Part shown: positions 16,624-29,759 of the stretch, one piece after another
How positions within the stretch are numbered: the stretch's first letter is position 1
How the letters are laid out: each line of letters opens with the position of its first letter
Assembly (NCBI GenBank): GCA_044222185.1
Contig: JBGANV010000014.1
Coordinates: 1 to 64,000, forward strand
Direction of reading: 5' to 3'
DNA from: Planctomycetota bacterium
Lineage (GTDB): Bacteria > Planctomycetota > GCA-002687715 > CAIWVZ01
Length of the DNA stretch: 64,000 nt
The notes under the pieces: generated by a model
Database searches by the model: none
What the model was told of the DNA's origin: nothing
Seen by the model: the letters and a program-made list of their open reading frames with translations, nothing else
Translations under genes and position numbers: made by a program

Positions 16624-19236
16624 GTGCGGACCCTTGCTGTCGTCGTCATCGGGATCGGTATTCTCGTCGGACTGATCGTCCTCTCGTCTCGCGACCTGAG
16701 CGGCGACGGAGCGGACACCCCGCGGTCCATCCCGATGATCGCTCTCACGCCGTCGTTTCCGCTGAACGCGACGCCTCCTGGCGTCCCCGACCAGTCACCG
16801 GTCGGTGTCGTTCGAATCGAGCAGGACGACGCTCAGGTTGGTCCCGACCTACCCGTGACCCCCTCCCTGGACTTCGGTGTGACGGTCCTCGTTCTCGACG
16901 CCGATTTCGCCACGCCCGTGAACGGCGCGGACGTCTATTACGCAACGGCGGCCGATGGCGAGCAGGAGTTCGAGCCGCCGTCCCTGACGCCGGTGGAATC
17001 CGAGCGATGGGCACGCACGCACGGTTTGCGATTCCGGACCAACGAACGCGGCCTCGTTCGCGTTCCGCAGTCGGGAGCGCCGGCACGCGTGATCGTCCGA
17101 AACCGGGAGAAGTCGTGCCGCGCCGTCATCCCAGCCATTGGCTCGACGCGCGTTTCCGTCCTCGTGCGCCCGCCCGTTTCGATCGCGGTGGCGGCGAGCG
17201 GTCCACAGGGTGAGCCCGCGCCCGGAATCCCCTTGCTGATCTCCGCAGAGACCGGCCGGGGCTGGGAACCGATTTCCATCGCCGCGACACGCGCCACGGA
17301 TTCGACTGCGCATTTCGACAACGTGTCGATGCTGCGCGCCCTCGCGCCGTTCACCCGCGTCTCCGTGCGTCCGGCGTATTCGCCGCGCAGCGAGCCGGGA
17401 GTCATGGCAAGCGTCGCGGATTTCATGGCCGAGCGGAAGCGTCTCCATCTGCCGCCGACTGCGAGCGTTTCGGTCAAGCTTCGGATGCCTGACGGTGCCC
17501 CCGTCGGAGTGCAGGGGCGCGTGGGACTGGACGTGATCGGTCCGAACGACCCGTCGACTTCGTTCCTTCGCGAGACACCCGCGTTCCATCGCGCGACCAA
17601 TGCCGACGGTGACGTGACGTTCGAAGGCGTTGCATTGGGGGCGCGCCTCGCGATCCGTGCGACGACTTCCGAAACGACGGCGGCGGAAGTCATCGTCGCG
17701 GGTCCCACGGAGGCCGGTTCGCGGATCCAGGTCGACGTCGCGACGGGCCCTCGCATCCCGAGGGTCCGGGCCCGCCTCGTCACGGAACAGCGGGAGCCCG
17801 TGGCATCACAGGTCGTGACGGTCGTCGCGCGCACGGAATCGGCGTCCGGCCGCGCGTCGGCCGAGTACACGGCGCATTCGGACTCGGCTGGGCGGCTCTC
17901 GCTGCTCCTGCGCGACCTCACCATCGCTGACGTCACCACGCTGCACCTGAGCCTCGGCACGCTGGCCACGGGGCGGACGGCGCGGCAGTCCGTGTCGCTC
18001 CCTCGCTCGGGGCCCGACGGGTCGTTCGAGCTGGGTGACGTCATTCTCGCCCCCATCCCGTTGATCGCCTCCGGCATCGTCACCGACGACGCGGGAACAC
18101 CAGTCGCGGATGCCTCGATCGGCGCGCACCTGGAGCAAGTGGCAGCGGACGCCGCCATCCGACGGCCGTCCGAGTGGTACCTCCCCAAGGATGCAACGGC
18201 GATCTCCGCACCGGACGGCACTTTCACCTTGTACGCGCTCCTTCCGCCGAAACCGCTCGGCCTCGTCGTGTCCACGAGCACGTACCGCGCCGCCGAGCCG
18301 GTTCGCATCACTCCGGGAGTCCGCGGCATCCGACTCGTGATCCCGCGCCCGGGGAATCTCACGGGTCGCGTGGTTGCGCCGGCAGGGTGGCTCCCATCCG
18401 AGTTCCTGGTCCAGTTTGCGCGGAAGGGAGCGGGTCCCGCGCCACGCGCCGGCGGTTCGACGAACGTGATGGAACGCGTGGGACCGGACGGGCGGTTCGC
18501 GCTGAACAAGATGGCGCCGGGCTCTGGTGTCGTGTTCCTCGTGCACGAGAATTCGCGGAGCGAGGCCCTGGTGCGCCTCGACGACGTCGTCGTCGCGAGC
18601 GGCGATGCCGGTCCAGACCCCCGGCTGGCGACGCTGACGGTGCCGGGATCGTCGATGCTGATCACGGCACGTGCGCGCGGCGAACGTGGTGAGCCCATCC
18701 CCGGCACGGCCGTGACCGTGGAGGCGGATGGAAGGCCAGGCCACCATCGACTCGAGAGCCAGGGTTCGGCTTCGTCGGGCGAGGTGCACCTCGCCTTCGC
18801 CGAGCGCAGTCCCAGGACGTTGACGATTCGGGCCCCTGGCCATCGCGCGGTCACCGTCAAGGACGTTCAGGCGGACGTGACGGTGACCTTGACGGATGGC
18901 ATTCCCATCACCGTCCACGTCGCAAACCTGCCGCCATTGTCGATGGCGAGCTGCACGTACCAGGTGAGAGCGAACGACGTCGTCACGCATGAACTTGCCT
19001 CAGCGGTGCTCGACGACTCTGGCAGCGCCGCGCTGAAGATCCCGCATCCCGGGCGGCAGGACCTGCAACTGTTCGTCGTCGACGCCGTCGCAGGCGCGCA
19101 GCCCTGCGGTCCGCCCATGCGGATCGACGTTGCCGACGTCGCGGGTCCCCAGGCGTTCGAGGCGATGCTCGCGCCCGCCAACCTGACGGCGATCACCGGC
19201 GCCGTCGAATTGTTCCGGCGAGCCTCGGCAAAGTGA
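16624..19236 (+). CDS. Membrane-anchored carboxypeptidase-regulatory-like repeat protein
   Basis: N-terminal TM helix; repeated G.V.D..G.PV..A and T...G.F motifs. Confidence 0.75.
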   Translation: MRTLAVVVIGIGILVGLIVLSSRDLSGDGADTPRSIPMIALTPSFPLNATPPGVPDQSPVGVVRIEQDDAQVGPDLPVTPSLDFGVTVLVLDADFATPVNGADVYYATAADGEQEFEPPSLTPVESERWARTHGLRFRTNERGLVRVPQSGAPARVIVRNREKSCRAVIPAIGSTRVSVLVRPPVSIAVAASGPQGEPAPGIPLLISAETGRGWEPISIAATRATDSTAHFDNVSMLRALAPFTRVSVRPAYSPRSEPGVMASVADFMAERKRLHLPPTASVSVKLRMPDGAPVGVQGRVGLDVIGPNDPSTSFLRETPAFHRATNADGDVTFEGVALGARLAIRATTSETTAAEVIVAGPTEAGSRIQVDVATGPRIPRVRARLVTEQREPVASQVVTVVARTESASGRASAEYTAHSDSAGRLSLLLRDLTIADVTTLHLSLGTLATGRTARQSVSLPRSGPDGSFELGDVILAPIPLIASGIVTDDAGTPVADASIGAHLEQVAADAAIRRPSEWYLPKDATAISAPDGTFTLYALLPPKPLGLVVSTSTYRAAEPVRITPGVRGIRLVIPRPGNLTGRVVAPAGWLPSEFLVQFARKGAGPAPRAGGSTNVMERVGPDGRFALNKMAPGSGVVFLVHENSRSEALVRLDDVVVASGDAGPDPRLATLTVPGSSMLITARARGERGEPIPGTAVTVEADGRPGHHRLESQGSASSGEVHLAFAERSPRTLTIRAPGHRAVTVKDVQADVTVTLTDGIPITVHVANLPPLSMASCTYQVRANDVVTHELASAVLDDSGSAALKIPHPGRQDLQLFVVDAVAGAQPCGPPMRIDVADVAGPQAFEAMLAPANLTAITGAVELFRRASAK

Positions 19237-19336
19237 CCCGATCGCCCTCCTTCGCTGGCCACGCCGTCGCCGCACGAACGTGCAGGTGCACCACCCGGTG
19301 CTCGCGCCGATCGGTCGCTCCGGGACCTCGTGCCGC

Positions 19337-21616
19337 ATGAGTTCTGCACGGGTCGTTCTCGCCGTGATGTGTCTCGCCGCGTTCGGTGTCGCGGTGTGGC
19401 TCGTCTCCGACTCGATGCGGACCACCGCGGCGGTCAATCCGATCGCGGTGGACGGAGGCATCACGACGCCCAGGCCAGTCACCGCGGTCGATCGTCCAGG
19501 CGGCGGCGACTCCTCGTTGCGCCCGGTCGTCAGGCCCGTGCCGTTCGCGGCGGCGCAGGACCCCGAGGCCGCGAGTGTTGCGGAGAGTGCCCCCGCAGCG
19601 AATCCCAACGATCTCGCCATCGTCGTGACCGTCGTGACGTTCGACGGCATGCCGGCGGCGCATGCGGCCGTGACGTTCCGCACGCGACGGCGCGGAGCCG
19701 GGGTCATGGAGACCCGAAGGACGTCGGACGTGGGTGTCGTCGTGTTCGGCCCGTGGACGCAGCGCAGCGGTCCCGACCTCGATGACGTCGTCACGATCGA
19801 GTCGGTGTCGGCGCCAGCACCGACGTCCCGTGTCGAGGGCGTGCTCCGCGACCTCCACGCGACGGGCGTGATCCTGCGCCTGCCGCCGACGGGAACGGTC
19901 GTCGTCAACGTTCAATCCTCGGAGCCCGGGCCGCGATCCGCGTCGGTCGGGCTGCGGCGCCTCGGCGAGTTCGTGCCCAAGGATGCGGGCGGCGAAACCC
20001 AACGGGCAAACGACGGCGGCGTCGCGGTGTTTCCCTTCGTACCCCTGAACGCGGTGTTTGCGGTGACCGTCGATCTGGAAGGCTTCGACACTCCGCCGCG
20101 CAAAGCCGTGGGCCCCACCGCCGCGGGCGAATCGGTCACGATCGACGTACCCGTCGGACCGAGGCTTCACGTCGTGCGCGCCCGGATCCTCTCGGGCGAT
20201 GGAAAGCCCCTTTCGTCCGCGTTCATCCGAATCGAGGGCGGGGCGTCCGACAACGCGACCAAGTGGGCCGAGCTCGGCGACGGGACGACGGGCGAGAATG
20301 GAGAGCTCGACTGCCTGTTGCGAGCCGAGCCGATGTCAGGGGCGGCCGAGCTGAGGTTCAGTCGGATCGAGCGCGGTGACGCCGTGGCGGCCGCGAACGT
20401 TCGCCTGCCCGATCCGCTCCCACCGTCGACGATCGACGCGGGCGACGTCAGGCTTCGCGAGGCGCCCGTCGGGGCCGAGGGCATCGTCGTGACGGAGGAC
20501 GGCCGCCCGGCCCAGGACGTCGCGCTCGAGCTCTTCATGCGAAAACCATCGGCGAAGAAACCTGTCGACTGGGTTCCGTCGGGCCGTGTCATGGGCCGCT
20601 CCGGCGCCGATGGCCGATTTCAGCTACGCGGGGTCCTCGCCGGCATCGACGCGAGCATCGAGCTCGCGCTGGGAGTTCGCGATGCCGTCCTGGTGAACCC
20701 CGAGCCCGTTGCGTTCCGCCTCGGCGCGCGCGACCTCCGACTCGTCGTCGCCGTCGGTGCCGGAATCGCAGGTCGAATCGTTCTCCCGGCGACCTGGAGC
20801 GGCGAGGAGTTGGCCGTGACGCTCGAAGCGGGCGGCGAAGGCGGGCGATCGCTCCCCATCCGGATCGACACCGACGGGAACTTCGACGATCGGACGGTGC
20901 CCCGCATGCAAGGGTCGTTCGTGATCCGCCATCCGCGGAAGGGTGGCGACGTCGTACGACGGTTCGATGGGGTCACGATCTCGGCCGATGCCACGGATCC
21001 GAGGCTGCGGGAGATTCACCTCTCGGAGACCTGCCTGCTCGTCGCCGTGCGCGCGCGGGCGCCCGACGGCAGCCCCGTGAACCGGTTCCACGTGGCCGAA
21101 CTGGATGGGTCCGCGCCGAAAGGCTCGGCACCGAGGTACCCCGCGGCCCGCCCGGTCGGCGAGGTTCACCTGGCATTTCCCGACCGTGCGCCGCGATCCC
21201 TCCTCGTCGAAGCGGAGGGGTTCCGCTCGATCCGGCTCGATGGAGTGGTCTCCGACTGCGACGTCGCGCTTCAGGCCGGCCTGCCGGTCGCGTGCGAGGC
21301 CGCCGGGATTCCCGAGTTGGGTTCCGACGCCGTCGTCACCGCCGAGTTCACGTCCGAGTCGAGCGCGTCGCCGATCGACGCGCGTGTCGCTCGCGATGGC
21401 TCCTTCTCCTGTGACCTGCCGAGCGCGGGGCCGTGGCGCATCCACCTGGCAGCATCCGCCGGCAAACCCGGTTTCTCGACCGAGCTCGCGGGCCCGTTCC
21501 AGATCCACGTGAAGGACGTGACCGAAGCACAACGCTTTCACGTGACGCTGAGCGTCGCGGATCGCGCGATCCTGCAGCGATCGGTCGCCGCCGTGCGGGC
21601 GAAGCTCGCGAAATAG
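19337..21616 (+). CDS. Membrane-anchored carboxypeptidase-regulatory-like repeat protein, paralog of the 16624 gene
   Basis: Same architecture; shares LPPT, GPT.AG, DPRL and GEVHLAF...PR.L blocks. Confidence 0.75.
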   Translation: MSSARVVLAVMCLAAFGVAVWLVSDSMRTTAAVNPIAVDGGITTPRPVTAVDRPGGGDSSLRPVVRPVPFAAAQDPEAASVAESAPAANPNDLAIVVTVVTFDGMPAAHAAVTFRTRRRGAGVMETRRTSDVGVVVFGPWTQRSGPDLDDVVTIESVSAPAPTSRVEGVLRDLHATGVILRLPPTGTVVVNVQSSEPGPRSASVGLRRLGEFVPKDAGGETQRANDGGVAVFPFVPLNAVFAVTVDLEGFDTPPRKAVGPTAAGESVTIDVPVGPRLHVVRARILSGDGKPLSSAFIRIEGGASDNATKWAELGDGTTGENGELDCLLRAEPMSGAAELRFSRIERGDAVAAANVRLPDPLPPSTIDAGDVRLREAPVGAEGIVVTEDGRPAQDVALELFMRKPSAKKPVDWVPSGRVMGRSGADGRFQLRGVLAGIDASIELALGVRDAVLVNPEPVAFRLGARDLRLVVAVGAGIAGRIVLPATWSGEELAVTLEAGGEGGRSLPIRIDTDGNFDDRTVPRMQGSFVIRHPRKGGDVVRRFDGVTISADATDPRLREIHLSETCLLVAVRARAPDGSPVNRFHVAELDGSAPKGSAPRYPAARPVGEVHLAFPDRAPRSLLVEAEGFRSIRLDGVVSDCDVALQAGLPVACEAAGIPELGSDAVVTAEFTSESSASPIDARVARDGSFSCDLPSAGPWRIHLAASAGKPGFSTELAGPFQIHVKDVTEAQRFHVTLSVADRAILQRSVAAVRAKLAK

Positions 21617-21633
21617 GCGGCGCCCGGCCTCGG

Positions 21634-22392
21634 TCAGTCACCCATCCCCATGCGGTAGCCGCCCGCGACGTCCAGGTTCACACCAGTGACGTAGCTCGAC
21701 GGATCCAGGAGGAAGAGCGCCGCCTTCGCGATGTCGTCGAGCGTGCCGGGACGGCGGAGCGGAATGACGTGGGCCGGATCGGGCGGCAGGTCCACGGAGT
21801 TCTCGAGCTGGCCCGGCGAGATCATGTTCACGCGGATGTTCCGCGGTGCGAGGCTCTTCGCGAATGCCTTCGTCGCGAGGCAGAGCGCGAGCTTGGTCGC
21901 CTGGTAGGCCGGCGCGCGCATGGACGTGGCGAGGTGGGTCACGCCGGCGTAGCCGAGGTTGATGACGGCGCCGCCAGTCGGCGGAAACAACTCGATCGCG
22001 CGCCTGATGATGGTGATCGGAGCCACGAGGTTCGCTTCGAGAAGGTCGCGCCACTCCCTCTCGCTCGTCTCCTCGATGGGTTTCACGAGGTAGTTGCCCA
22101 CGTTGTTGACGACGATCGAGAGACGATCCGTTTCGCGACGGATCGTCGCCATCATCCCATCGATCGAGTCCTCCCGGAGGAAGTCGGCGGAGACGCACCA
22201 CGCGCGGCGGCCCATGCCGCGGATGGCCGCAGCGACGGTTTCGGCCTCGGACTTCGACGTGTGGTAGTGGACGACGACGTCGGCGCCCGCTCCGGCCAAC
22301 GCGAACGCCAGGTGTCGCCCGAGACGCTTCGCGGCGCCCGTGACCAGTGCGACCTGCCCCGTGAGCAGACCACTGCTCGAGCGGTCGCTCAC
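21634..22392 (-). CDS. Pteridine reductase-like SDR (FolM/PTR1 type)
   Basis: TGAAKRLG, VVVHY, NNVG and YxxxK (YQATK); coupled to folB. Confidence 0.85.
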   Translation of the reverse strand: MSDRSSSGLLTGQVALVTGAAKRLGRHLAFALAGAGADVVVHYHTSKSEAETVAAAIRGMGRRAWCVSADFLREDSIDGMMATIRRETDRLSIVVNNVGNYLVKPIEETSEREWRDLLEANLVAPITIIRRAIELFPPTGGAVINLGYAGVTHLATSMRAPAYQATKLALCLATKAFAKSLAPRNIRVNMISPGQLENSVDLPPDPAHVIPLRRPGTLDDIAKAALFLLDPSSYVTGVNLDVAGGYRMGMGD

Positions 22393-22742
22393 GGCCGGCG
22401 CTCCACGTACACGGCGGGCCAGTTCGCCCGCGGCACGGCGCCGGGCTTCATGATCTTCAAGCCGACGCGCGCCGCCGCGAACTCACGGATGACGAGTGCG
22501 GCCCCTTCCTCCGCGAACGTCTCGAGAAGCTTGTACTTCCGCGTCTTCGCGAGGTTCGTCAACGCGTCCGCGAGGTGGACGTAGTCGACCGTGTCCTTCA
22601 CGTGATCGCTCATCGCCGCTGCGGCGAAGTCCCGATCGAGCGCGCAGTCCACGATGAGGGTCTGCTCCTTCACGCGCTCGTGAGGATAGATCCCGATGAC
22701 GCAGTCGATCTTGAGGCCTTCGATGAAGATCGTGCCGATCAT
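22389..22742 (-). CDS. folB: Dihydroneopterin aldolase
   Basis: IGIYPHER..Q, TVDY, LLETFAE and K.P motifs; 117 aa. Confidence 0.93.
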   Translation of the reverse strand: MIGTIFIEGLKIDCVIGIYPHERVKEQTLIVDCALDRDFAAAAMSDHVKDTVDYVHLADALTNLAKTRKYKLLETFAEEGAALVIREFAAARVGLKIMKPGAVPRANWPAVYVERRP

Positions 22743-23800
22743 GTCGGTCTCCTGAGCAGGCCGCGCGCGGTGGCTTCATCCAACGCGATGCGGGTCGGTT
22801 GATTCAGTCGCAGCTTCAGGGCTTCGTCGATCGTGACCCACCGCGCTTCTTCCAGTTCGTAGTTCGGCTTCAGCTTCGACGGATCGACGGCATGGGAAAC
22901 GTAGTTGATGAGGAGGAAGTGGCGCTTCTGCAGGAACTCGGGGGACTCGATGCAGTCCTGGATCATGAGCATCGTCGAGTTCCGCACGTCGAGGCCCGTC
23001 TCCTCGCGAATCTCGCGCTCGTAGGCGGCGAGCATCGTTTCGCCGTACTCGATCTTGCCCCCGGGGATTCCGAACGTGTCCGACCATTTCCGCGTCCGCA
23101 CGAGGAGGATGCGTCCGTCGGGATGGACGACGATGCCGCCCACGGTCGGAATGACGAGCTTCTGCGTCTGGTACATCCACTCGCGATCGAGGGCGTTGAC
23201 GACGTCGCGCACAGACCCGAACGCGTAGTCGGGGGACGCGGCCGACAGTTTCGATCGGCTCGTGTACCCGTAGAGCGCAGCGCCGGCGCGGACACCGGCG
23301 ATCCGCGCCGCCTCCAGATCGTGGAGCGTGTCGCCCACGTACAGAGTTTCGTCGCGGACGAGCCCGTGGTCCGTGAGCATCCGGGGGAGGACGCCGCGTT
23401 TGTCCGAAGCACCACCGTGGATCTTCGTGAACACGTCGGCGAGCCCCCGCGATCGCAACGTCCGCTCGAGGATCTCCGTCGGCACCGTCGAGAGGATGAA
23501 CAGCCTGATGCCGCGGGTCACGCATCCGTGGAGGAGCGCGTGGACTCCGTCGAAGAGCGGCGCCGAGTCGACGTGTTGGGCATAACGGCGGAAGAACTCG
23601 GCGTCGATGTCGCCGATGGAGACGCCCGGAAGCCGCGACGCGTAGAAACCCTCGACCGGGATCCGGAAGTCGCGGCGGTACGTCTCCAGGTCGACGGCTC
23701 GACCACCGAAGCGGACGAGCGTGTCGTTCGTCGCCGCCAGTGTGACCGTGATGTCGTCGGCCAGCGTGCCGGCCCAATCCAGTACGACTGATGAGATCAA
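22739..23800 (-). CDS. HAD phosphatase-NUDIX hydrolase fusion
   Basis: DWAGT, LST, K and GDTLHD (HAD motifs I-IV); intact Nudix box GKIEYGETMLAAYEREIREETGL; TTG start with AGGAG RBS. Confidence 0.88.
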   Translation of the reverse strand: MISSVVLDWAGTLADDITVTLAATNDTLVRFGGRAVDLETYRRDFRIPVEGFYASRLPGVSIGDIDAEFFRRYAQHVDSAPLFDGVHALLHGCVTRGIRLFILSTVPTEILERTLRSRGLADVFTKIHGGASDKRGVLPRMLTDHGLVRDETLYVGDTLHDLEAARIAGVRAGAALYGYTSRSKLSAASPDYAFGSVRDVVNALDREWMYQTQKLVIPTVGGIVVHPDGRILLVRTRKWSDTFGIPGGKIEYGETMLAAYEREIREETGLDVRNSTMLMIQDCIESPEFLQKRHFLLINYVSHAVDPSKLKPNYELEEARWVTIDEALKLRLNQPTRIALDEATARGLLRRPT

Positions 23801-24142
23801 CGAGACTCCTGCGTGGGTCGGGCACGCTAGCACGATCGCGGATCGGCGGCAGGGGGCTCGGCGGACGCGGTCGATCGAAACGGTCGAGCCCGGTGGCCTC
23901 GCTTGCGGCGAGCTCGGTGCCAGAAACGCGTGACGAAAACGCGGAGCGCGGCTCGCGATCCTCGCACCATTCCGGTGGACATCTGGTTTTGGCGACGCCG
24001 CGGATCGGCCGAGCGCGATCGGCGAAACGCGTCGCCGGGTCGCGGAGGACGGGGTGTCAGCCCTCCTTCACGCTCGTGGTGCGGATCGAGTCCTGGATCG
24101 TCCGAGCGCCGGCATTACCATTCGAGCCCCGACACCGCGCCC

Positions 24143-25048
24143 ATGGATCACCACCGCCTCACCAACCTTCAAGCGCTCGAAGACGAGGCCATCCACGTCT
24201 TTCGCGAGGTGGTGGCCGAGTGCGAGCGTCCCGTGATGCTCTACTCCGCCGGCAAGGATTCGAGCGTGATGCTGCGGCTCGCGCAGAAGGCATTTCGTCC
24301 GGGCCGCATTCCGTTTCCGTTGCTCCACGTCGACACGGGCTTCAAGTTCGCCGAGATGTACGCGTTCCGTGACCGTGTCGCGGCGGAGGCGGGCGTCCAA
24401 CTCCTCGTGCACCGGAATGAGGCGGCCATCGCGAACGGAACGAATCCGTGGGAGCTGGGGACCTCGGCGTGCTGTGCGTTGCTGAAGACGAGAGCCCTCC
24501 TCGATGCACTCACCCGACACGGCTTCACCGCCGCGTTCGGTGGAGCGCGGCGCGACGAGGAGAAGTCGCGGGCGAAGGAGCGCGTCTACTCGTTTCGGGA
24601 TGTGCGCGGTCAGTGGGACCCCCGCAACCAGGGGCCCGAGCTGTGGAACCTCTACAACGGACGGGTCAACGCCGGCGAGACCGTGCGGGTCTTCCCGCTT
24701 TCGAACTGGACCGAGATCGACGTGTGGCACTACATCCACCGCGAGGCGATCGACGTGGTTCCGATGTACTTCGCCAGACCGCGCGCCGTGTTCGAACGTG
24801 GCGCGCAGCTCATCCCCGCCGAACTGGTTCATCCGTCGGTGAAGGATGAACGGCCGTCCATGGTCGTGTGTCGCTTCCGAAGCCTCGGCTGCATCCCTTG
24901 CACGGGTGCCGTGCGGTCGGCGGCGTCGACGGTCCCCGAGATCATCCTCGAGCTGGCCTCGACGCGGAGCTCGGAGCGGATGAACCGTCTCATCGATCAC
25001 GACACGGACGCGTCCATGGAGCAGAAGAAACGCGAGGGCTACTTTTGA
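24143..25048 (+). CDS. cysD: Sulfate adenylyltransferase subunit 2
   Basis: [36 protein letters not shown]-terminal KKREGYF. Confidence 0.97.
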
Positions 25049-26949
25049 CGGACGCCGGGCGGATGCTGCGGCGATTCTCCGAGGCCGACCTCCTGCGAAT
25101 CGCGTCGGCGGGGAGCGTGGATGACGGGAAGTCCACGTTGCTCGGACGACTCCTGCACGATGCGCGAGCGATCCACGACGATCAGCTCGCCCGCGTGGAG
25201 GAGGCGTCGCTGCGCATCGGCGGCTCGAAGATCGATTACGCCTTCGTCCTCGACGGGCTGAAGGCGGAGCGCGAGCAGGGGATCACCATCGACGTCGCCT
25301 ATCGCTCGTTCGCCACCGAACGGCGTCGCTTCCTCATCGCGGATACCCCCGGCCACGAGCAGTACACCCGGAACATGGTCACGGCGGCGTCGACGGCCGA
25401 TCTGGCACTTCTCCTCGTCGACGCGCGGTCCGGCGTCCGTGACCAAACGAAGCGGCATGCGTATCTGGCGTCGCTCCTGGGGATCCGCCACTTCGTCGTC
25501 GTGGTGAACAAGATGGACCTGGTCGGATACGCAGAGGACGCTTTCGAGCGCATCCGCACCGAGTTCTCCGACTTCGCGGAGCGCCTCCAGGTTCCCGACG
25601 TGACCTTCATCCCGGCGAGCGCGATCCACGGAGAGAACGTCGTGGCGTCGGCGCCGTCCATGCCGTGGTATGGGGGACTCACGCTGCTGAAGCAGCTCGA
25701 ATCCGCCTATGCGCCGGGTGCGAGGAACCTGGTGGACCTGCGCCTCCCCGTGCAGTGCGTGATCCGCGCCGGCGATGAACTCCGCCGCTACGCCGGGCAG
25801 CTCGCGTCGGGTGTGGTCAGCGTCGGTGATCCGATCGTCGTCCTGCCGTCGGGGCGCGCGTCACGCGTGCGGTCCATCGAGACGTCCGCCGGTTCTGCCC
25901 AGGTTGCGTTCGCCGGCCAGTCGGTGGCGGTCACGCTTGCCGACGAGATCGACGTAGGGCGCGGCGACGTGCTCGTGGGCGCCGCGGATCCGCCGGCCGT
26001 CACCTCCGAGATCGATGCCGATCTCGTGTGGCTTTGTGATCGCCCGCTCGATCCAGCGCGCACGTACGTGATCAAACACGGCACCTGCGTCACCCGCGCG
26101 CAGATCGGTCGACCCGAGTCTCGCGTCGATCCTCTCGAGCTTCGCCATGAGGCGGCTGCGAGCCTCGCGCTCAACGACGTGGGGCGCGTGCGCCTCGAGA
26201 CCGTGCGACCCCTCGTCGTCGATGCCTACCGGCGCATCCGCGGGACGGGCAGCTTCATCGTCATCGATCCGACGACGAACGTGACGATCGCCGCGGGACT
26301 GATCGTCGATCCGCGGGCCCGGTCGTCCGCGCGCGTCGACGGCGCGCAGCCCGTGAGCCGCAACATCACGCCGACGTCGGGGCAGGTGACGCGCGACGAG
26401 CGCCGGCGCCTTCACGGCCAGAGCGCCGTCACGGTCTGGTTCACGGGCCTCAGCAGCTCCGGCAAGTCGACGCTCGCCTACGCGCTCGAACGCCGACTCG
26501 TGTCCGACGGTCGCCCCTGCTTCGTCCTCGACGGCGACAACCTGCGGCACGGTCTCAACCGCGACCTGGGCTTCAGCCCTGAAGACCGCCGGGAGAACAT
26601 CCGCCGCGCCGCCGAAGTCGCCGCCCTGTTCAACGAGGCCGGTGTGATCGCGATCACGGCGTTCATTTCCCCCTATCGCGCCGATCGCGAATCGGCGCGC
26701 GCCGTCGTCGGCGCCGGCCGCTTCGTCGAGGTGTTCGTCGATGCGCCACTGGCCGTCTGCGAAGAGCGCGATCCGAAGGGTCTCTATCGGAAGGCCCGGG
26801 CCGGCCAGATTCCCGAGTTCACGGGAGTCACGGCGCCGTACGAGGCTCCGCTCGACCCCGCGGTCCACGTCGAGACTCACCGCTCGACGACGACCGAGGG
26901 CGTCGATCGCATCGTCGCTCATCTGCGCGCCATTGGCGTGTTCCCGTAG
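25045..26949 (+). CDS. cysNC: Bifunctional sulfate adenylyltransferase subunit 1 / APS kinase
   Basis: [23 protein letters not shown] and NKMD, then [19 protein letters not shown] and RDPKGLY; TTG overlaps the cysD stop (alternative ATG at 25063). Confidence 0.96.
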
Positions 26950-27110
26950 ACGGAGAGCGGCGGCGCGGCCACGGCCACGAGGCGTGCGGATGCGCACGGT
27001 GCGCCGACCGGCCGGGCGCAGCGACGGCGCGCCACGACTTGTCCCTGGGGCTTCCGCAGAGGGAAATGCGCGCACCGGTCGCCTGACGGGCCAACCGGCA
27101 TGTCGGTTGC

Positions 27111-29759
27111 ATGAGTTCGATTGATGCGCCGCCTTTGGCTGCCTTCGGGAGACTGTGCTCATGTTCCATGACCAGGCCGTCGTTGGCGTCAGGATCCGCG
27201 GGTGCGCGATCCTGGTCGCTCTCTCACGCGTTCGGGGTCGCAGGCGTCGGCGGCGGTCTCCTGAGTTACGGCCTGTCGACTGCGACCGGAACCGTCTATT
27301 CGCAACTCACGTTCGACGACGGCACCGGCCCGGCGTTGTACGTTGCGGGCGATTTCACCGTGGCGGGTGACGTCGCCGCCAACGGCATCGCGTGCCGCAA
27401 GAGCGGGAAATGGCAAGCCCTCGGGGCGGGGCCCGGCGGGCGCGTTTATTGCATGCTCGGATTCAACGACGGAACAGGGCCTGCGTTGTACGCCGGCGGT
27501 GAGTTCGGCGTTGCGCGGTGGAACGGTTCAAGTTGGGCGACGCTCGTCGGACTGCCGGCCACCGTCACGTGTCTGGCCGCCTTCGACGACGGCACGGGTA
27601 ACGCGCTCTACGCGGCCCGGATGGACCCATGCTGCATCGGCATCGTCGCGCGCTACCAGGGTGGCGCCTGGACGATCGTCGGCAGTCTTTCGCTGCCCGG
27701 GTTCCAAGGTGGCTACGCGGCCACGATGGCTGGGTTCGACGATGGAAGCGGGCCCGCGCTCTACGTGGCTGGAGGCTTCTCGACCGTGTCGGGCGTGACC
27801 GCGCCGGGGATCGCACGGTGGAACGGTGCGACGTGGGCGCCAGTCGGTGCGCTGGTTCCTGGCGTGCTCCGCACGCTGGTCGTGTTCGACGACGGCACCG
27901 GCGCCGCGCTCTACCTCGGCTTGACCGGCGTCGGCGGTGCTCCAGGCCTGCGACGGTGGTCGCCGCCCACGTCAACCTGGGCCGCCCTACCCGCTGGGTT
28001 TCTGGGAGCGGTTGCGGGCCTGACGGTGTACCACGGACCTGCGTTCGCGCGCGGGCTGTACGTCGCAGGGAACTTCGTCATCGGCGGGCCGGGCACGACG
28101 CCGGTGGCGAGGTGGAACGCGGGCACGGCGACGCCGCTGCCGATCACGACCGACGGCGCCGTCCGTTCGCTGGAGATCTTCGACGACGGGACGGGAACGT
28201 CGATGTTCGTGGGCGGGGCCTTCACGAAGGCGGGCGCGGTCGATGCCAGCAACCTCGCGCGCTGGAACGGCACGTCGGTGTTTCGTGTCGGTGCCGGTGT
28301 GAACGCACCTGCGACCGCGCTTCTCGTTCATGACGACGGCAGCGGCGCCGCGCTTTACGCGGGCGGCGAGTTCACGAGCATCACGTCCTCCTCCCAGGCC
28401 CACGTCGCGCGTTGGAATGGCAGCGCATGGGCGTCGCTCCAGTCCGGCGTGGACGGGCCCGTGCTCGCGCTCGCGGAGTTCAACGACGGTTCGGGTCTCG
28501 CCCTGTATGCGGGCGGACGTTTTGCGAACGCGGGCGGTGTCCCCGCGTCGAACGTCGCACGCTGGAACGGCACGCAATGGTCCGCGCTCGGCAGTGGCGT
28601 CCAATTGCCCGGCAGCCCCGCGCTGGCCGAGGTGCGTGCGTTCTCCGTATTCAACGATGGCTCCGGCCCGGCGCTCTACGCGGCCGGCGACTTCACGATC
28701 GCGGGTGGGGTCACGGCGACGGGAATCGCCCGATGGAATGGCGGCGCGTGGAGCGCGGTGGGATCCGCGTCGACCGGGCCCGTATCCGCACTCGGTCAAT
28801 TCGATGACGGGTCGGGGCTCGCGCTCTACGCCGGCGGGACCTTCACAACGTCAGGGGCAGGGGGAATCGCGTCCGTTGCCAGGTGGAACGGCTCACAGTG
28901 GTCGGCCGTGCCTGGCAACCCCCTTGCAGCGGGGACATTCAGCGTGCCGGCCGTGCGCGCGCTCACGACCTTCGACGACGGGACGGGTCCGGCCCTCTAC
29001 GTCGGCGGTGAGTTCACGACGCCGCTCAACGGGGGAACCCAGAACGTGGCGCGCTGGAATGGGGCACAGTGGCAAGGTCTGGGTGCCGGCCTGACGGGCG
29101 TCACCACGGCGACGGTGGCGCCGACGGTGGACGCGCTCGTGGTGCATGACGACGGCACGGGCCCGGCGCTCTACGCCGGTGGAAGGTTCAGTACGTCGGG
29201 CACTGCGACGACGTTCAACGACCTCGCGCGGTGGAGCGGTGCCGGTTGGCAACGCGTGCGCGGAGGCGTGCGCGGCACGAACGATCCGGTCGTTCACGCC
29301 CTGTGTTCGTTCAACGACGGTCCTGGCACGGCCCTCTTCGTCGGCGGCCGCTTCACCCTCGCCGACGGGATCGCGTCCGCCTACCTCGCGCGCTGGGCGT
29401 TGCCCCGCGCCGACCTGGCTTTCGTGCAGACCGGTGGTTCGGGGTCCCCGGTGATGGTGAATCAACGGTTCCTCATCCCCGGTGCGGAGTACTACAACGT
29501 CTTCAGCTTCCAGCCGGCACCGCTCGGAGTCGGCACGGGACCGTTCGGCGGGCTGTATGCGAGCAATCCGGCGGCGTTGCTCGCCCAACTACAGATTCCG
29601 CTCGGCATCCTGCCGTTCCATTTCGTCGCGACGTCCACATCCGTGTCCATGGGTCCCTATGCGCTGCCCGTCGGGACTCCGATCGAAGCGATCGACTTCC
29701 GCCTCGTCGGAGGTGCGCCCGGATGCCTGTCGCACGTCGTGGCGTATCTCGTGCAGTGA
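27111..29759 (+). CDS. Repeat beta-propeller surface protein (~14 FDDGxGPALY repeats) with C-terminal domain; start uncertain
   Basis: Repeats of (F/H)(D/N)DG(T/S)G.ALY(A/V)GG.F...ARWNG..W. Confidence 0.85.
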   Translation: MSSIDAPPLAAFGRLCSCSMTRPSLASGSAGARSWSLSHAFGVAGVGGGLLSYGLSTATGTVYSQLTFDDGTGPALYVAGDFTVAGDVAANGIACRKSGKWQALGAGPGGRVYCMLGFNDGTGPALYAGGEFGVARWNGSSWATLVGLPATVTCLAAFDDGTGNALYAARMDPCCIGIVARYQGGAWTIVGSLSLPGFQGGYAATMAGFDDGSGPALYVAGGFSTVSGVTAPGIARWNGATWAPVGALVPGVLRTLVVFDDGTGAALYLGLTGVGGAPGLRRWSPPTSTWAALPAGFLGAVAGLTVYHGPAFARGLYVAGNFVIGGPGTTPVARWNAGTATPLPITTDGAVRSLEIFDDGTGTSMFVGGAFTKAGAVDASNLARWNGTSVFRVGAGVNAPATALLVHDDGSGAALYAGGEFTSITSSSQAHVARWNGSAWASLQSGVDGPVLALAEFNDGSGLALYAGGRFANAGGVPASNVARWNGTQWSALGSGVQLPGSPALAEVRAFSVFNDGSGPALYAAGDFTIAGGVTATGIARWNGGAWSAVGSASTGPVSALGQFDDGSGLALYAGGTFTTSGAGGIASVARWNGSQWSAVPGNPLAAGTFSVPAVRALTTFDDGTGPALYVGGEFTTPLNGGTQNVARWNGAQWQGLGAGLTGVTTATVAPTVDALVVHDDGTGPALYAGGRFSTSGTATTFNDLARWSGAGWQRVRGGVRGTNDPVVHALCSFNDGPGTALFVGGRFTLADGIASAYLARWALPRADLAFVQTGGSGSPVMVNQRFLIPGAEYYNVFSFQPAPLGVGTGPFGGLYASNPAALLAQLQIPLGILPFHFVATSTSVSMGPYALPVGTPIEAIDFRLVGGAPGCLSHVVAYLVQ

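Follow-up and report, generated by a model that had tools for sequence, protein, structure and literature searches.

A HAD–Nudix fusion protein encoded next to folB is a candidate two-step dihydroneopterin triphosphate dephosphorylase

Introduction

A stretch of 64,000 nucleotides from a Planctomycetota genome (GenBank assembly GCA_044222185.1, contig JBGANV010000014.1, positions 1 to 64,000; hereafter the window) carries a compact three-gene operon on its minus strand (21634–23800), encoding a fusion of a HAD and a Nudix domain, the dihydroneopterin aldolase FolB and a short-chain dehydrogenase/reductase (SDR). We propose that the fusion protein first removes pyrophosphate and then the last phosphate from 7,8-dihydroneopterin triphosphate, immediately ahead of FolB, and assign this two-step reading as a whole a probability of about 0.55. 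The narrower proposal that the Nudix domain serves the first, FolQ-type step is likely. The Nudix half would represent a FolQ family of its own, and the atypical HAD domain attached to it is a credible candidate for the monophosphatase of the pathway.

Both dephosphorylation steps are poorly assigned in bacteria. The FolQ role of Nudix enzymes has been established for Lactococcus lactis and plants, and that of NudB for Escherichia coli (de Crécy-Lagard et al., PMC1971073). The folQ/nudB pyrophosphatase gene is nevertheless described as missing in most genomes, and cleavage of the final phosphate is ascribed to 'non-specific phosphatases' (PMC1971073, PMC4161248). Curated subsystems distinguish the variants FolQ, FolQ1 and FolQ2 (PMC6593275), and it might be that subsystem lists of this kind (PMC1971073, PMC6593275) already record the Nudix family described here as a form of FolQ. 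A search of the literature outside subscription journals found no paper on a HAD–Nudix fusion in pterin or folate synthesis.

Results

A HAD–Nudix fusion gene overlaps folB, and folB overlaps a reductase gene

The fusion gene (22739–23800, minus strand) encodes 353 amino acids plus a stop codon. Its longest open reading frame (ORF) spans 22739–23833 with a GTG start at 23833; the start was set at the TTG at 23800 because an AGGAG lies 7 nt before it and because a database protein identical to the product (100% identity) is 353 amino acids long. Residues 1–214 (23159–23800) form a HAD domain with a C1-type helical cap, as delimited by alignment and Pfam HAD_2, and residues 215–353 (22742–23158) form a Nudix domain (Pfam NUDIX, PF00293). 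The second gene, folB (22389–22742, minus strand), encodes 117 amino acids and has a GGAGA upstream of its ATG; the third (21634–22392, minus strand) starts with GTG and encodes a FolM/PTR1-type SDR of 252 amino acids. At the first junction, which reads ACATGATC, the folB ATG overlaps the TGA of the fusion gene (ATGA, 22739–22742), and at the second, which reads CCGTGAGC, the GTG of the reductase gene overlaps the folB TGA (GTGA, 22389–22392). On this layout FolB is judged to be translationally coupled to the HAD–Nudix fusion, and the reductase to FolB. The initial annotation of the window had described these 4-nt stop/start overlaps, an intact Nudix box and HAD motifs within a single polypeptide, and a HAD motif I reading DWAGT without its second Asp; the genes and both overlaps are present as described, and the domain features are borne out by Pfam, by translation and by an alignment of 30 homologues of the fusion family.

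Linkage to folB is conserved across phyla

An alignment-based scan covering one genome per species returned at least 544 relatives among 600 pattern matches, the best 80 of which were kept, and a further scan that started from an alignment of stand-alone Nudix proteins orthologous to the family yielded another 80 loci. A locus search with the single protein had returned only unrelated Nudix or HAD fragments, so that the alignment-based scan was needed. After removal of 6 loci on contigs already present, and with L061, which occurs in both scans, counted once, 153 non-redundant loci were obtained, 146 of which include 400 bp or more of sequence downstream of Nudix.

A FolB gene, detected with a hidden Markov model built from the first matches, follows the Nudix domain in the same orientation and at a distance of no more than 1 kb in 123 of these 146 loci, and of no more than 150 bp in 118 of them. 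The linkage is seen with the HAD–Nudix architecture (115/137), with the Nudix-only architecture (6/7) and in both 5'-truncated loci (2/2). The record labels of the loci name Verrucomicrobiota, Planctomycetota, Fibrobacterota, Pseudomonadota, Acidobacteriota-type bacteria and Methylomirabilota. Haloferula sargassicola NBRC 104335 (L131) is an example of a carrier in culture. The other neighbours vary by lineage, and none besides FolB recurs across phyla. A FolM-type reductase follows FolB in 14 of the 146 loci, labelled as Planctomycetota, Pseudomonadota and Fibrobacterota, and also in L183–L185. Conservation of the neighbourhood across genomes, which the initial annotation had put forward as the check on its proposal, is thus confirmed with respect to FolB, and its recurrence in many other genomes puts the gene arrangement well outside what chance would produce.

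Some of the labels are unreliable. Loci labelled as Klebsiella (L113, L135, L137), Bifidobacterium or Bifidobacteriaceae (L106, L107, L168, L169) and Akkermansia muciniphila (L051, L060, L175) belong here, and in a tree of Nudix domains those of L135, L137, L169, L051, L060 and L175 fall among freshwater or soil Verrucomicrobiota, contradicting their labels. Phylum tallies that use labels of this kind are to be regarded as unreliable.

Loci without FolB nearby belong mostly to Verrucomicrobia subdivision 6 or Methylacidiphilales and have CDGSH and inosine monophosphate dehydrogenase (IMPDH)-like genes as neighbours; one of the 23 has a FolB gene 2.2 kb off. In about 9–11 loci, represented by L056 (6103–6342, plus strand) and L071 (3646–4809, minus strand), the gene after the fusion encodes a small CDGSH iron-sulfur protein, with an IMPDH/GMP-reductase-like gene on the other strand and the large subunit of carbamoyl-phosphate synthase upstream. 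In three Pseudomonadales-labelled loci (L016, 554–1294, plus strand; also L017 and L019), the gene just upstream of the fusion and on the same strand encodes a Vut_1 protein (PF02592, 173 bits), a family with the Pfam title 'putative vitamin uptake transporter'. We take Vut_1 to be the YhhQ family of queuosine-precursor transporters, which may provide a link to another GTP cyclohydrolase product.

The Nudix domain has been fused to FolB more than once

In several genomes the neighbouring genes are joined into a single reading frame. A Planctomycetota genome belonging to the same taxonomic order as that of the window (L184, 2321–3724, plus strand) encodes HAD, Nudix and FolB in one frame of 468 amino acids, followed by the reductase. 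The same three domains occupy one frame of 502 amino acids in three Verrucomicrobiaceae loci (L151, L156 and L167, 3350–4855, plus strand). Another Planctomycetota genome encodes Nudix and FolB without HAD in a frame of 294 amino acids (L182, 2497–3378, minus strand). L184 and L182 come from two of the five genomes, out of 101 sampled from this phylum, that carry the Nudix family. When the Nudix domains were placed in a quick maximum-likelihood tree (IQ-TREE), in which many forks are unresolved, the triple fusion required at least two origins. In the same quick tree the Nudix domain of the window groups with those of other Planctomycetota and a set from Pseudomonadota (Shimodaira–Hasegawa-like approximate likelihood ratio test support of 98).

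The operon encodes the only FolB of the genome

The genome of the window comprises 7.08 Mb and is 93.8% complete. Its single FolB match is the FolB of the operon, and the adjacent FolB is likewise the sole match in each of five other carriers searched (by label three Verrucomicrobiota, one Pseudomonadales and one Fibrobacteria). The genes folE, folK, folP and folA lie outside the window, on contigs C1, C3, C14 and C6, respectively, in agreement with the initial annotation, which had noted that no folE, folK or folP is adjacent. No NudB match above the cut-off was found in the genome, the best (29.8 bits vs 103) being on another contig, and no Biopterin_H match, which would mark a pterin-dependent hydroxylase, was found at this level of completeness.

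The FolB protein scores 96.1 bits against Pfam PF02152 (cut-off 31.8) and 73.6 bits against TIGR00525, barely above the cut-off of 72.15. It aligns end to end with the gammaproteobacterial FolB structures 3o1k, 3r2e and 2o90, its best solved relatives. It is not a FolX, as its score with NF008418 is 33.2 bits against a cut-off of 152.

The reductase matches Pfam adh_short_C2 with 143.6 bits (cut-off 27). Among 225 NCBIfam families its best match is the TmpR/FolM-like NF012208, with a score of 213.5 bits that lies under the cut-off of 325; the next, the pteridine reductase PRK09135, is 62 bits lower at 151 bits. A search of PDB sequences returned generic SDRs only. PTR1 and FolM are known to carry TGX3RXG where SDRs have TGX3GXG (de Crécy-Lagard et al., PMC1971073). 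This signature is present in the window as TGAAKRLG (residues 18–25; 22318–22341, minus strand) and was found in 14 of 14 cluster-linked SDRs, which places them with the FolM/TmpR/PTR1 type by motif. A role of the reductase as a replacement for dihydrofolate reductase (DHFR) was ruled out in the genome of the window, which has a canonical DHFR.

The Nudix domain is intact and distinct from NudB

The Nudix domain scores 70.7 bits against PF00293 (cut-off 21.1). Its Nudix box, GX5EX7REUXEEXGU (residues 248–270; 22991–23059, minus strand), contains G248, E254, R262, E263, E266 and E267, all of which are invariant among the 30 aligned homologues, and GX5EX7REXXEE is preserved in every one of the 153 related loci. 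The family has motifs of its own (TVGG, KWS..WGIPGGK, QDCIE.PEF and LNxPTR), and stand-alone orthologues are about 50% identical to the Nudix domain of the fusion. The isolated domain reaches only 25.5 bits with the NudB model NF006961 (cut-off 103) and, on these scores, is not a NudB orthologue.

The nearest solved relatives in PDB sequence and fold searches are the small MutT-like proteins 4dyw, 3id9 and 4kyx, NudI and Arabidopsis NUDX1, the latter being in the top few distinct structures (E value 1e-11); NudB structures are not among the 60 PDB sequence matches shown. An AlphaFold model of the fusion built on the 30-homologue alignment (mean predicted local distance difference test score 92.3, predicted template modelling score 0.82) likewise matches NudI and NUDX1 structures. 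Taken over both halves of the fusion, the structure searches gave generic COG0546 and MutT-like neighbours without a substrate-specific match. Public annotations of the family are equally generic ('NUDIX domain-containing protein', 'phosphoglycolate phosphatase').

The HAD domain retains the nucleophile and lacks the second Asp of motif I

With Pfam HAD_2 the HAD domain scores 63.1 bits (cut-off 23.8). The 30-homologue alignment identifies D8 (the nucleophile), T12, S104, K134, D157 and D161 as core residues; S104 of motif II is nearly invariant, and K134 of motif III and G156, D157 and D161 of motif IV are invariant. The Rossmannoid core thus bears motifs II to IV (S/T, K, GDxxxD) as expected of the HAD superfamily. 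Motif I (DWAGT, residues 8–12; 23765–23779, minus strand) departs from the DxDx(T/V) of canonical HAD phosphatases: the nucleophile D8 is kept and the acid/base Asp at position +2 is replaced by Ala. All 142 HAD domains of the other loci, not counting two cut at their 5' end, have DW[S/A]GT, 138 of them as DWSGT and 4 as DWAGT.

Residues that are invariant and peculiar to this HAD family are W9, D16, T20, T24, F45, P48, F52 and F69. The cap is rich in aromatic residues, with W9, F45, F52 and F69 invariant and Y41 and Y53 nearly so, which suggests a surface that would suit stacking on a pterin ring. The closest solved structures of the HAD half, found by PDB sequence and fold searches, are COG0546 phosphatases (2ah5, 3mc1, 2nyv, AlnB and CbbY), with a Foldseek probability of 1.00 and target-normalised TM-scores (template modelling scores) of 0.74–0.83 for 2ah5, 3mc1 and 4ex7; in the two COG0546 alignments shown, the relatives have DxDGT.

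The HAD domain falls under every equivalog cut-off. It scores 59.5 and 52.4 bits with the phosphoglycolate phosphatase models NF009699 (cut-off 368) and TIGR01449 (cut-off 180), so it does not qualify as a phosphoglycolate phosphatase, and 40.8 bits with the model of the pyrophosphatase PpaX (cut-off 218). Phosphonatase (PhnX, TIGR01422) was rejected as well, since the match of 17.1 bits (cut-off 220) covers only residues 2–15, that is motif I, and the cap has no invariant Lys. The mechanism of PhnX needs a Lys in the cap that forms a Schiff base.

A precedent exists for a HAD phosphatase with an altered motif I. In drimenol synthase, the HAD domain carries DXG where DXD would be expected, and it still strips both phosphates of drimenyl diphosphate stepwise, yielding the alcohol (PMC12232559). 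On this precedent, absence of the second Asp need not bar phosphatase activity. The HAD domain of the fusion would then need another proton donor or have to rely on its substrate; from the alignment, D16 (invariant) and H160 (nearly invariant) are candidates for such a donor. The position of D16 is occupied by Ser in 2ah5, the best-matching DxD relative.

Stand-alone Nudix orthologues retain FolB

Five Fibrobacterota loci (L103–L107) encode a stand-alone Nudix protein followed by FolB, in four of the five cases with the reductase as well, and have no HAD gene within 4 kb. A sixth locus, L161, also encodes a stand-alone Nudix protein followed by FolB. The Nudix–FolB pair is therefore the core of the system and the HAD domain a frequent but dispensable addition, as the HAD-less clusters keep Nudix and FolB, and no orthologous HAD was found elsewhere in the five HAD-less genomes searched. 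Such a pattern is expected if the first step needs a specific enzyme and the second can also be performed by general phosphatases. A different phosphatase taking the place of HAD was considered, and the neighbours of L103 and L105 (PEGA, NAGidase, L-PSP and UbiD-type genes) offered no candidate. L189, a stand-alone Nudix match at the same locus as L107 (G109:C4:35540–35926), lies in an open frame of 415 amino acids, far longer than the gene of about 150 amino acids; the excess may be a mere stop-free stretch or an extension at the N terminus.

The surroundings of the operon

The three genes form a closed unit, with divergent genes upstream and a convergent ORF of 778 amino acids downstream. 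The region 23801–23902 is common to the fusion gene and a divergent cysD-like gene and holds the AGGAG ribosome-binding site. No regulatory RNA was matched in Rfam at E ≤ 1 within 19000–27000, and no sigma-70-like promoter or terminator was found within 21300–24300 by a scan that may not suit the host organism.

The divergent genes encode a cysD-like protein with a PAPS_reduct domain (23903–25048, plus strand) and a cysN/cysC-like fusion of 693 amino acids with GTP_EFTU and APS kinase domains (24868–26949, plus strand); these ORFs overlap as listed, and their true starts probably lie further downstream. Three large ORFs on the plus strand, of 870 (16624–19236), 778 (19280–21616) and 882 amino acids (27111–29759), have weak family matches only, namely to CarboxypepD_reg, to DUF4198 below its cut-off, and to a Rax2-type beta-propeller. 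By eye, the 882-amino-acid protein shows a repeated unit of the form '...FDDGTG.ALY.GG.F....ARWNG..W...'.

Discussion

Proposed pathway

The results above establish which domains and motifs are present, how the genes are ordered, conserved and fused, and which other pathway genes the genome has; from them we infer the following substrates and order of reactions. GTP cyclohydrolase I, whose gene lies on another contig, would make 7,8-dihydroneopterin triphosphate. The Nudix domain would cleave off pyrophosphate to give the monophosphate, which is the FolQ/NudB step performed by a distinct Nudix family. The HAD domain would form an aspartyl-phosphate on D8 and release the last phosphate, leaving dihydroneopterin. 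FolB would cleave this compound and so supply FolK and FolP with 6-hydroxymethyl-dihydropterin. It would also epimerise dihydroneopterin to dihydromonapterin in a side reaction, and the FolM-type reductase would reduce a dihydropterin, probably dihydromonapterin or dihydroneopterin, to the tetrahydropterin in an accessory branch present in a minority of lineages. More tentatively, and at somewhat less than even odds in our estimation, the HAD domain may be a dedicated dihydroneopterin monophosphate phosphatase in which the non-canonical DWSGT motif relocates the general acid or does without it, acting with Nudix and FolB as a module, in some bacteria one polypeptide, to convert the triphosphate to 6-hydroxymethyl-dihydropterin without free intermediates.

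The initial annotation had held that the fusion carries out both steps just upstream of FolB. On comparative genomics, the position next to FolB is strongly supported, given linkage in 123 of 146 loci and triple fusions in two lineages, and the first step largely so; the second is only probable in view of the HAD-less clusters.

Several observations weigh against the two-step reading. The counts were obtained from the 80 most similar loci of each scan, close relatives included, which are neither random nor independent samples. FolB is lacking within 1 kb in 23 of the 146 loci. Among five genomes without an adjacent FolB that were searched, three encode FolB elsewhere and two, which are metagenome-assembled and of completeness not known, gave no match. 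The family is also patchy, occurring in 5 of 101 sampled genomes of Planctomycetota, the phylum of the window. Regarding the first step, models of NAD diphosphatase and MutT score the Nudix domain as well as or better than that of NudB, all of them far under their cut-offs, and its substrate cannot be told from sequence alone. As to the second, the general acid/base Asp is absent from 142 of 142 HAD copies, and the nearest solved relatives are all DxD phosphatases, so that an altered chemistry or substrate is possible. Moreover, the association with FolB can do without HAD (L103–L107 and L161). In five genomes with a HAD-less Nudix protein (four of these Fibrobacterota genomes and the Nudix–FolB genome G061) the best HAD matches elsewhere reach 38–65 bits, compared with 250–280 bits for orthologues, and no other phosphatase gene lies beside the stand-alone clusters L103 and L105, the two examined. 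The dispensability of HAD would fit some other accessory role just as well.

Alternative roles of the fusion and its operon

One such role would leave the Nudix domain as the pyrophosphatase and have the HAD domain hydrolyse a phosphoanhydride, be it the pyrophosphate that Nudix sets free or the phosphates at the end of the tri- or diphosphate, with general phosphatases taking the final monoester. The second Asp of motif I is the donor for poor (alcohol) leaving groups, and its replacement in all 142 copies, mostly by Ser, fits this idea. HAD enzymes acting on good leaving groups do without it, as in the P-type ATPases (DKTGT) and in the pyrophosphatase/phosphoramidase LHPP (Ser at position +2). 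Matches to PpaX (40.8 bits vs 218) and to the Bacteroides HAD pyrophosphatase structures 3qu4 and 3qu2 point in the same direction, as does the loss of HAD in some lineages. These matches, and those to BT2127-type enzymes, are however no better than those to other COG0546 members, and the enzymes concerned keep DxD. Inorganic pyrophosphatase is abundant in cells, so a fused one brings no obvious benefit, and the invariant, aromatic-rich cap suggests an organic rather than an inorganic substrate. Finally, the HAD domain of drimenol synthase hydrolyses the final monoester in spite of lacking this Asp (PMC12232559). We consider a phosphoanhydride substrate unlikely.

The initial annotation had also considered a reduced pterin cofactor, in place of folate, as the possible product. 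In its strict form, this would make the operon a module dedicated to tetrahydromonapterin or tetrahydroneopterin, with the fusion feeding the FolM-like reductase and not folate synthesis. The coupling of a TGX3RXG reductase to folB in the window and the same three-gene order in Planctomycetota, Pseudomonadota and Fibrobacterota loci speak for it, as does the canonical DHFR, which can reduce folate without help from the reductase. For folM-like genes that lie in clusters with pterin genes, a role in making tetrahydropterins has been predicted (PMC1971073). On the other hand, folK and folP need the product of the operon FolB, which is the only one in the genome, the reductase accompanies 14 of 146 loci compared with 123 for FolB, and no Biopterin_H was found in the 93.8%-complete genome. 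An exclusive cofactor role thus seems rather improbable. Because FolB is the sole copy, folE, folK, folP and folA are present elsewhere and the reductase is confined to 14 of 146 loci, the core appears to serve folate synthesis, with the reductase seemingly grafted on as a branch. The two uses do not exclude each other, dihydroneopterin being their common intermediate.

It could further be argued that the fusion is a general house-cleaning enzyme for nucleotides or other metabolites, unrelated to pterins, and that its adjacency to folB is a historical accident perpetuated by descent or transfer: the best Nudix family matches are of NAD diphosphatase, MutT and NudI type, public annotations are generic and 23 of 146 loci have no adjacent FolB. 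An accident of this kind is very improbable given that FolB stays adjacent across several phyla while all other neighbours vary, that the triple fusion arose at least twice independently and a Nudix–FolB fusion exists besides, and that stand-alone Nudix orthologues keep FolB as a neighbour.

Characterised FolB enzymes use the dephosphorylated substrate. This, the ordinary family membership of the operon FolB and a cap without the invariant Lys for a phosphonatase Schiff base make it scarcely credible that FolB takes dihydroneopterin monophosphate and releases glycolaldehyde phosphate for the HAD domain to dephosphorylate, a scheme suggested by the best HAD family matches, to phosphoglycolate phosphatases (NF009699, 59.5 bits; 2-phosphoglycolate being the oxidised analogue), and by the fit of motif I to the first 14 positions of TIGR01422 (phosphonoacetaldehyde being the C–P analogue), all of which lie far under their cut-offs.

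Implications of the two-step reading

As a family present in at least 544 species-level genomes, the fusion offers a concrete, expressible candidate for both poorly assigned steps, and a conserved operon together with fusions to the next enzyme is about as strong an indication as comparative genomics can give. If the two-step reading is true, it would close a gap in the pathway of Verrucomicrobiota and of some Planctomycetota, Fibrobacterota and Pseudomonadota, and thereby improve predictions of vitamin prototrophy in these groups. Because the family is patchy, even within the phylum of the window (5/101), it would not solve the problem of the missing folQ in general. It would also represent a natural example of a HAD phosphatase working without the second Asp, and provide a compact two- or three-domain cassette for pterin or folate engineering.

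Comparison with known systems

The closest functional parallels to the Nudix half are FolQ of L. lactis (YlgG) and NUDX1, which we take to be the plant homologue of FolQ. They share with it the Nudix fold, an intact box, a folate-gene context and the predicted reaction, and the NUDX1 structures 5gp0, 6dby and 6fl4 are among its closest solved relatives (E values of about 1e-11). The Nudix domain of the fusion differs from NUDX1 in being only about 25% identical to it (Foldseek alignment), in being joined to HAD and in having motifs of its own. E. coli NudB belongs to the same superfamily, with the same proposed reaction, and is not orthologous to it (25.5 bits vs 103).

Parachlamydia belongs to the same Planctomycetes–Verrucomicrobia–Chlamydiae (PVC) group of phyla as several of the carriers. 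The SEED folate subsystem records for it a Nudix FolQ fused to FolB (PMC1971073, Table 2). This protein, compared here by description only, resembles the Nudix–FolB fusion of L182 and the triple fusions of L184, L151, L156 and L167, and the passages on it in PMC1971073 mention no HAD domain.

The HAD half shares its fold, C1 helical cap, motifs II to IV and nucleophilic Asp with the COG0546 phosphatases (Gph, PpaX, CbbY and AlnB). It differs from them in having DW[S/A]GT instead of DxDGT, in scoring far under their equivalogs (59.5 vs 368 bits) and in being fused to Nudix. A more distant likeness, stated at the superfamily level, is to the drimenol synthase AsDMS, a bifunctional protein consisting of a terpene cyclase and a HAD-like domain with a C1 cap and a DXG motif, which ends its pathway by phosphate removal (PMC12232559); AsDMS differs in its partner domain and in acting on an isoprenoid diphosphate.

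Finally, the operon as a whole resembles the FolX/FolM tetrahydromonapterin pathway of E. coli and Pseudomonas in combining a FolM-type TGX3RXG reductase with a protein of the FolB family. To our knowledge, the phosphatases of that pathway are likewise unassigned. In contrast to it, the operon encodes FolB and not FolX (33.2 bits vs 152) and a reductase scoring 213.5 bits against a cut-off of 325, and dephosphorylation by the HAD–Nudix fusion would precede epimerisation rather than follow it.

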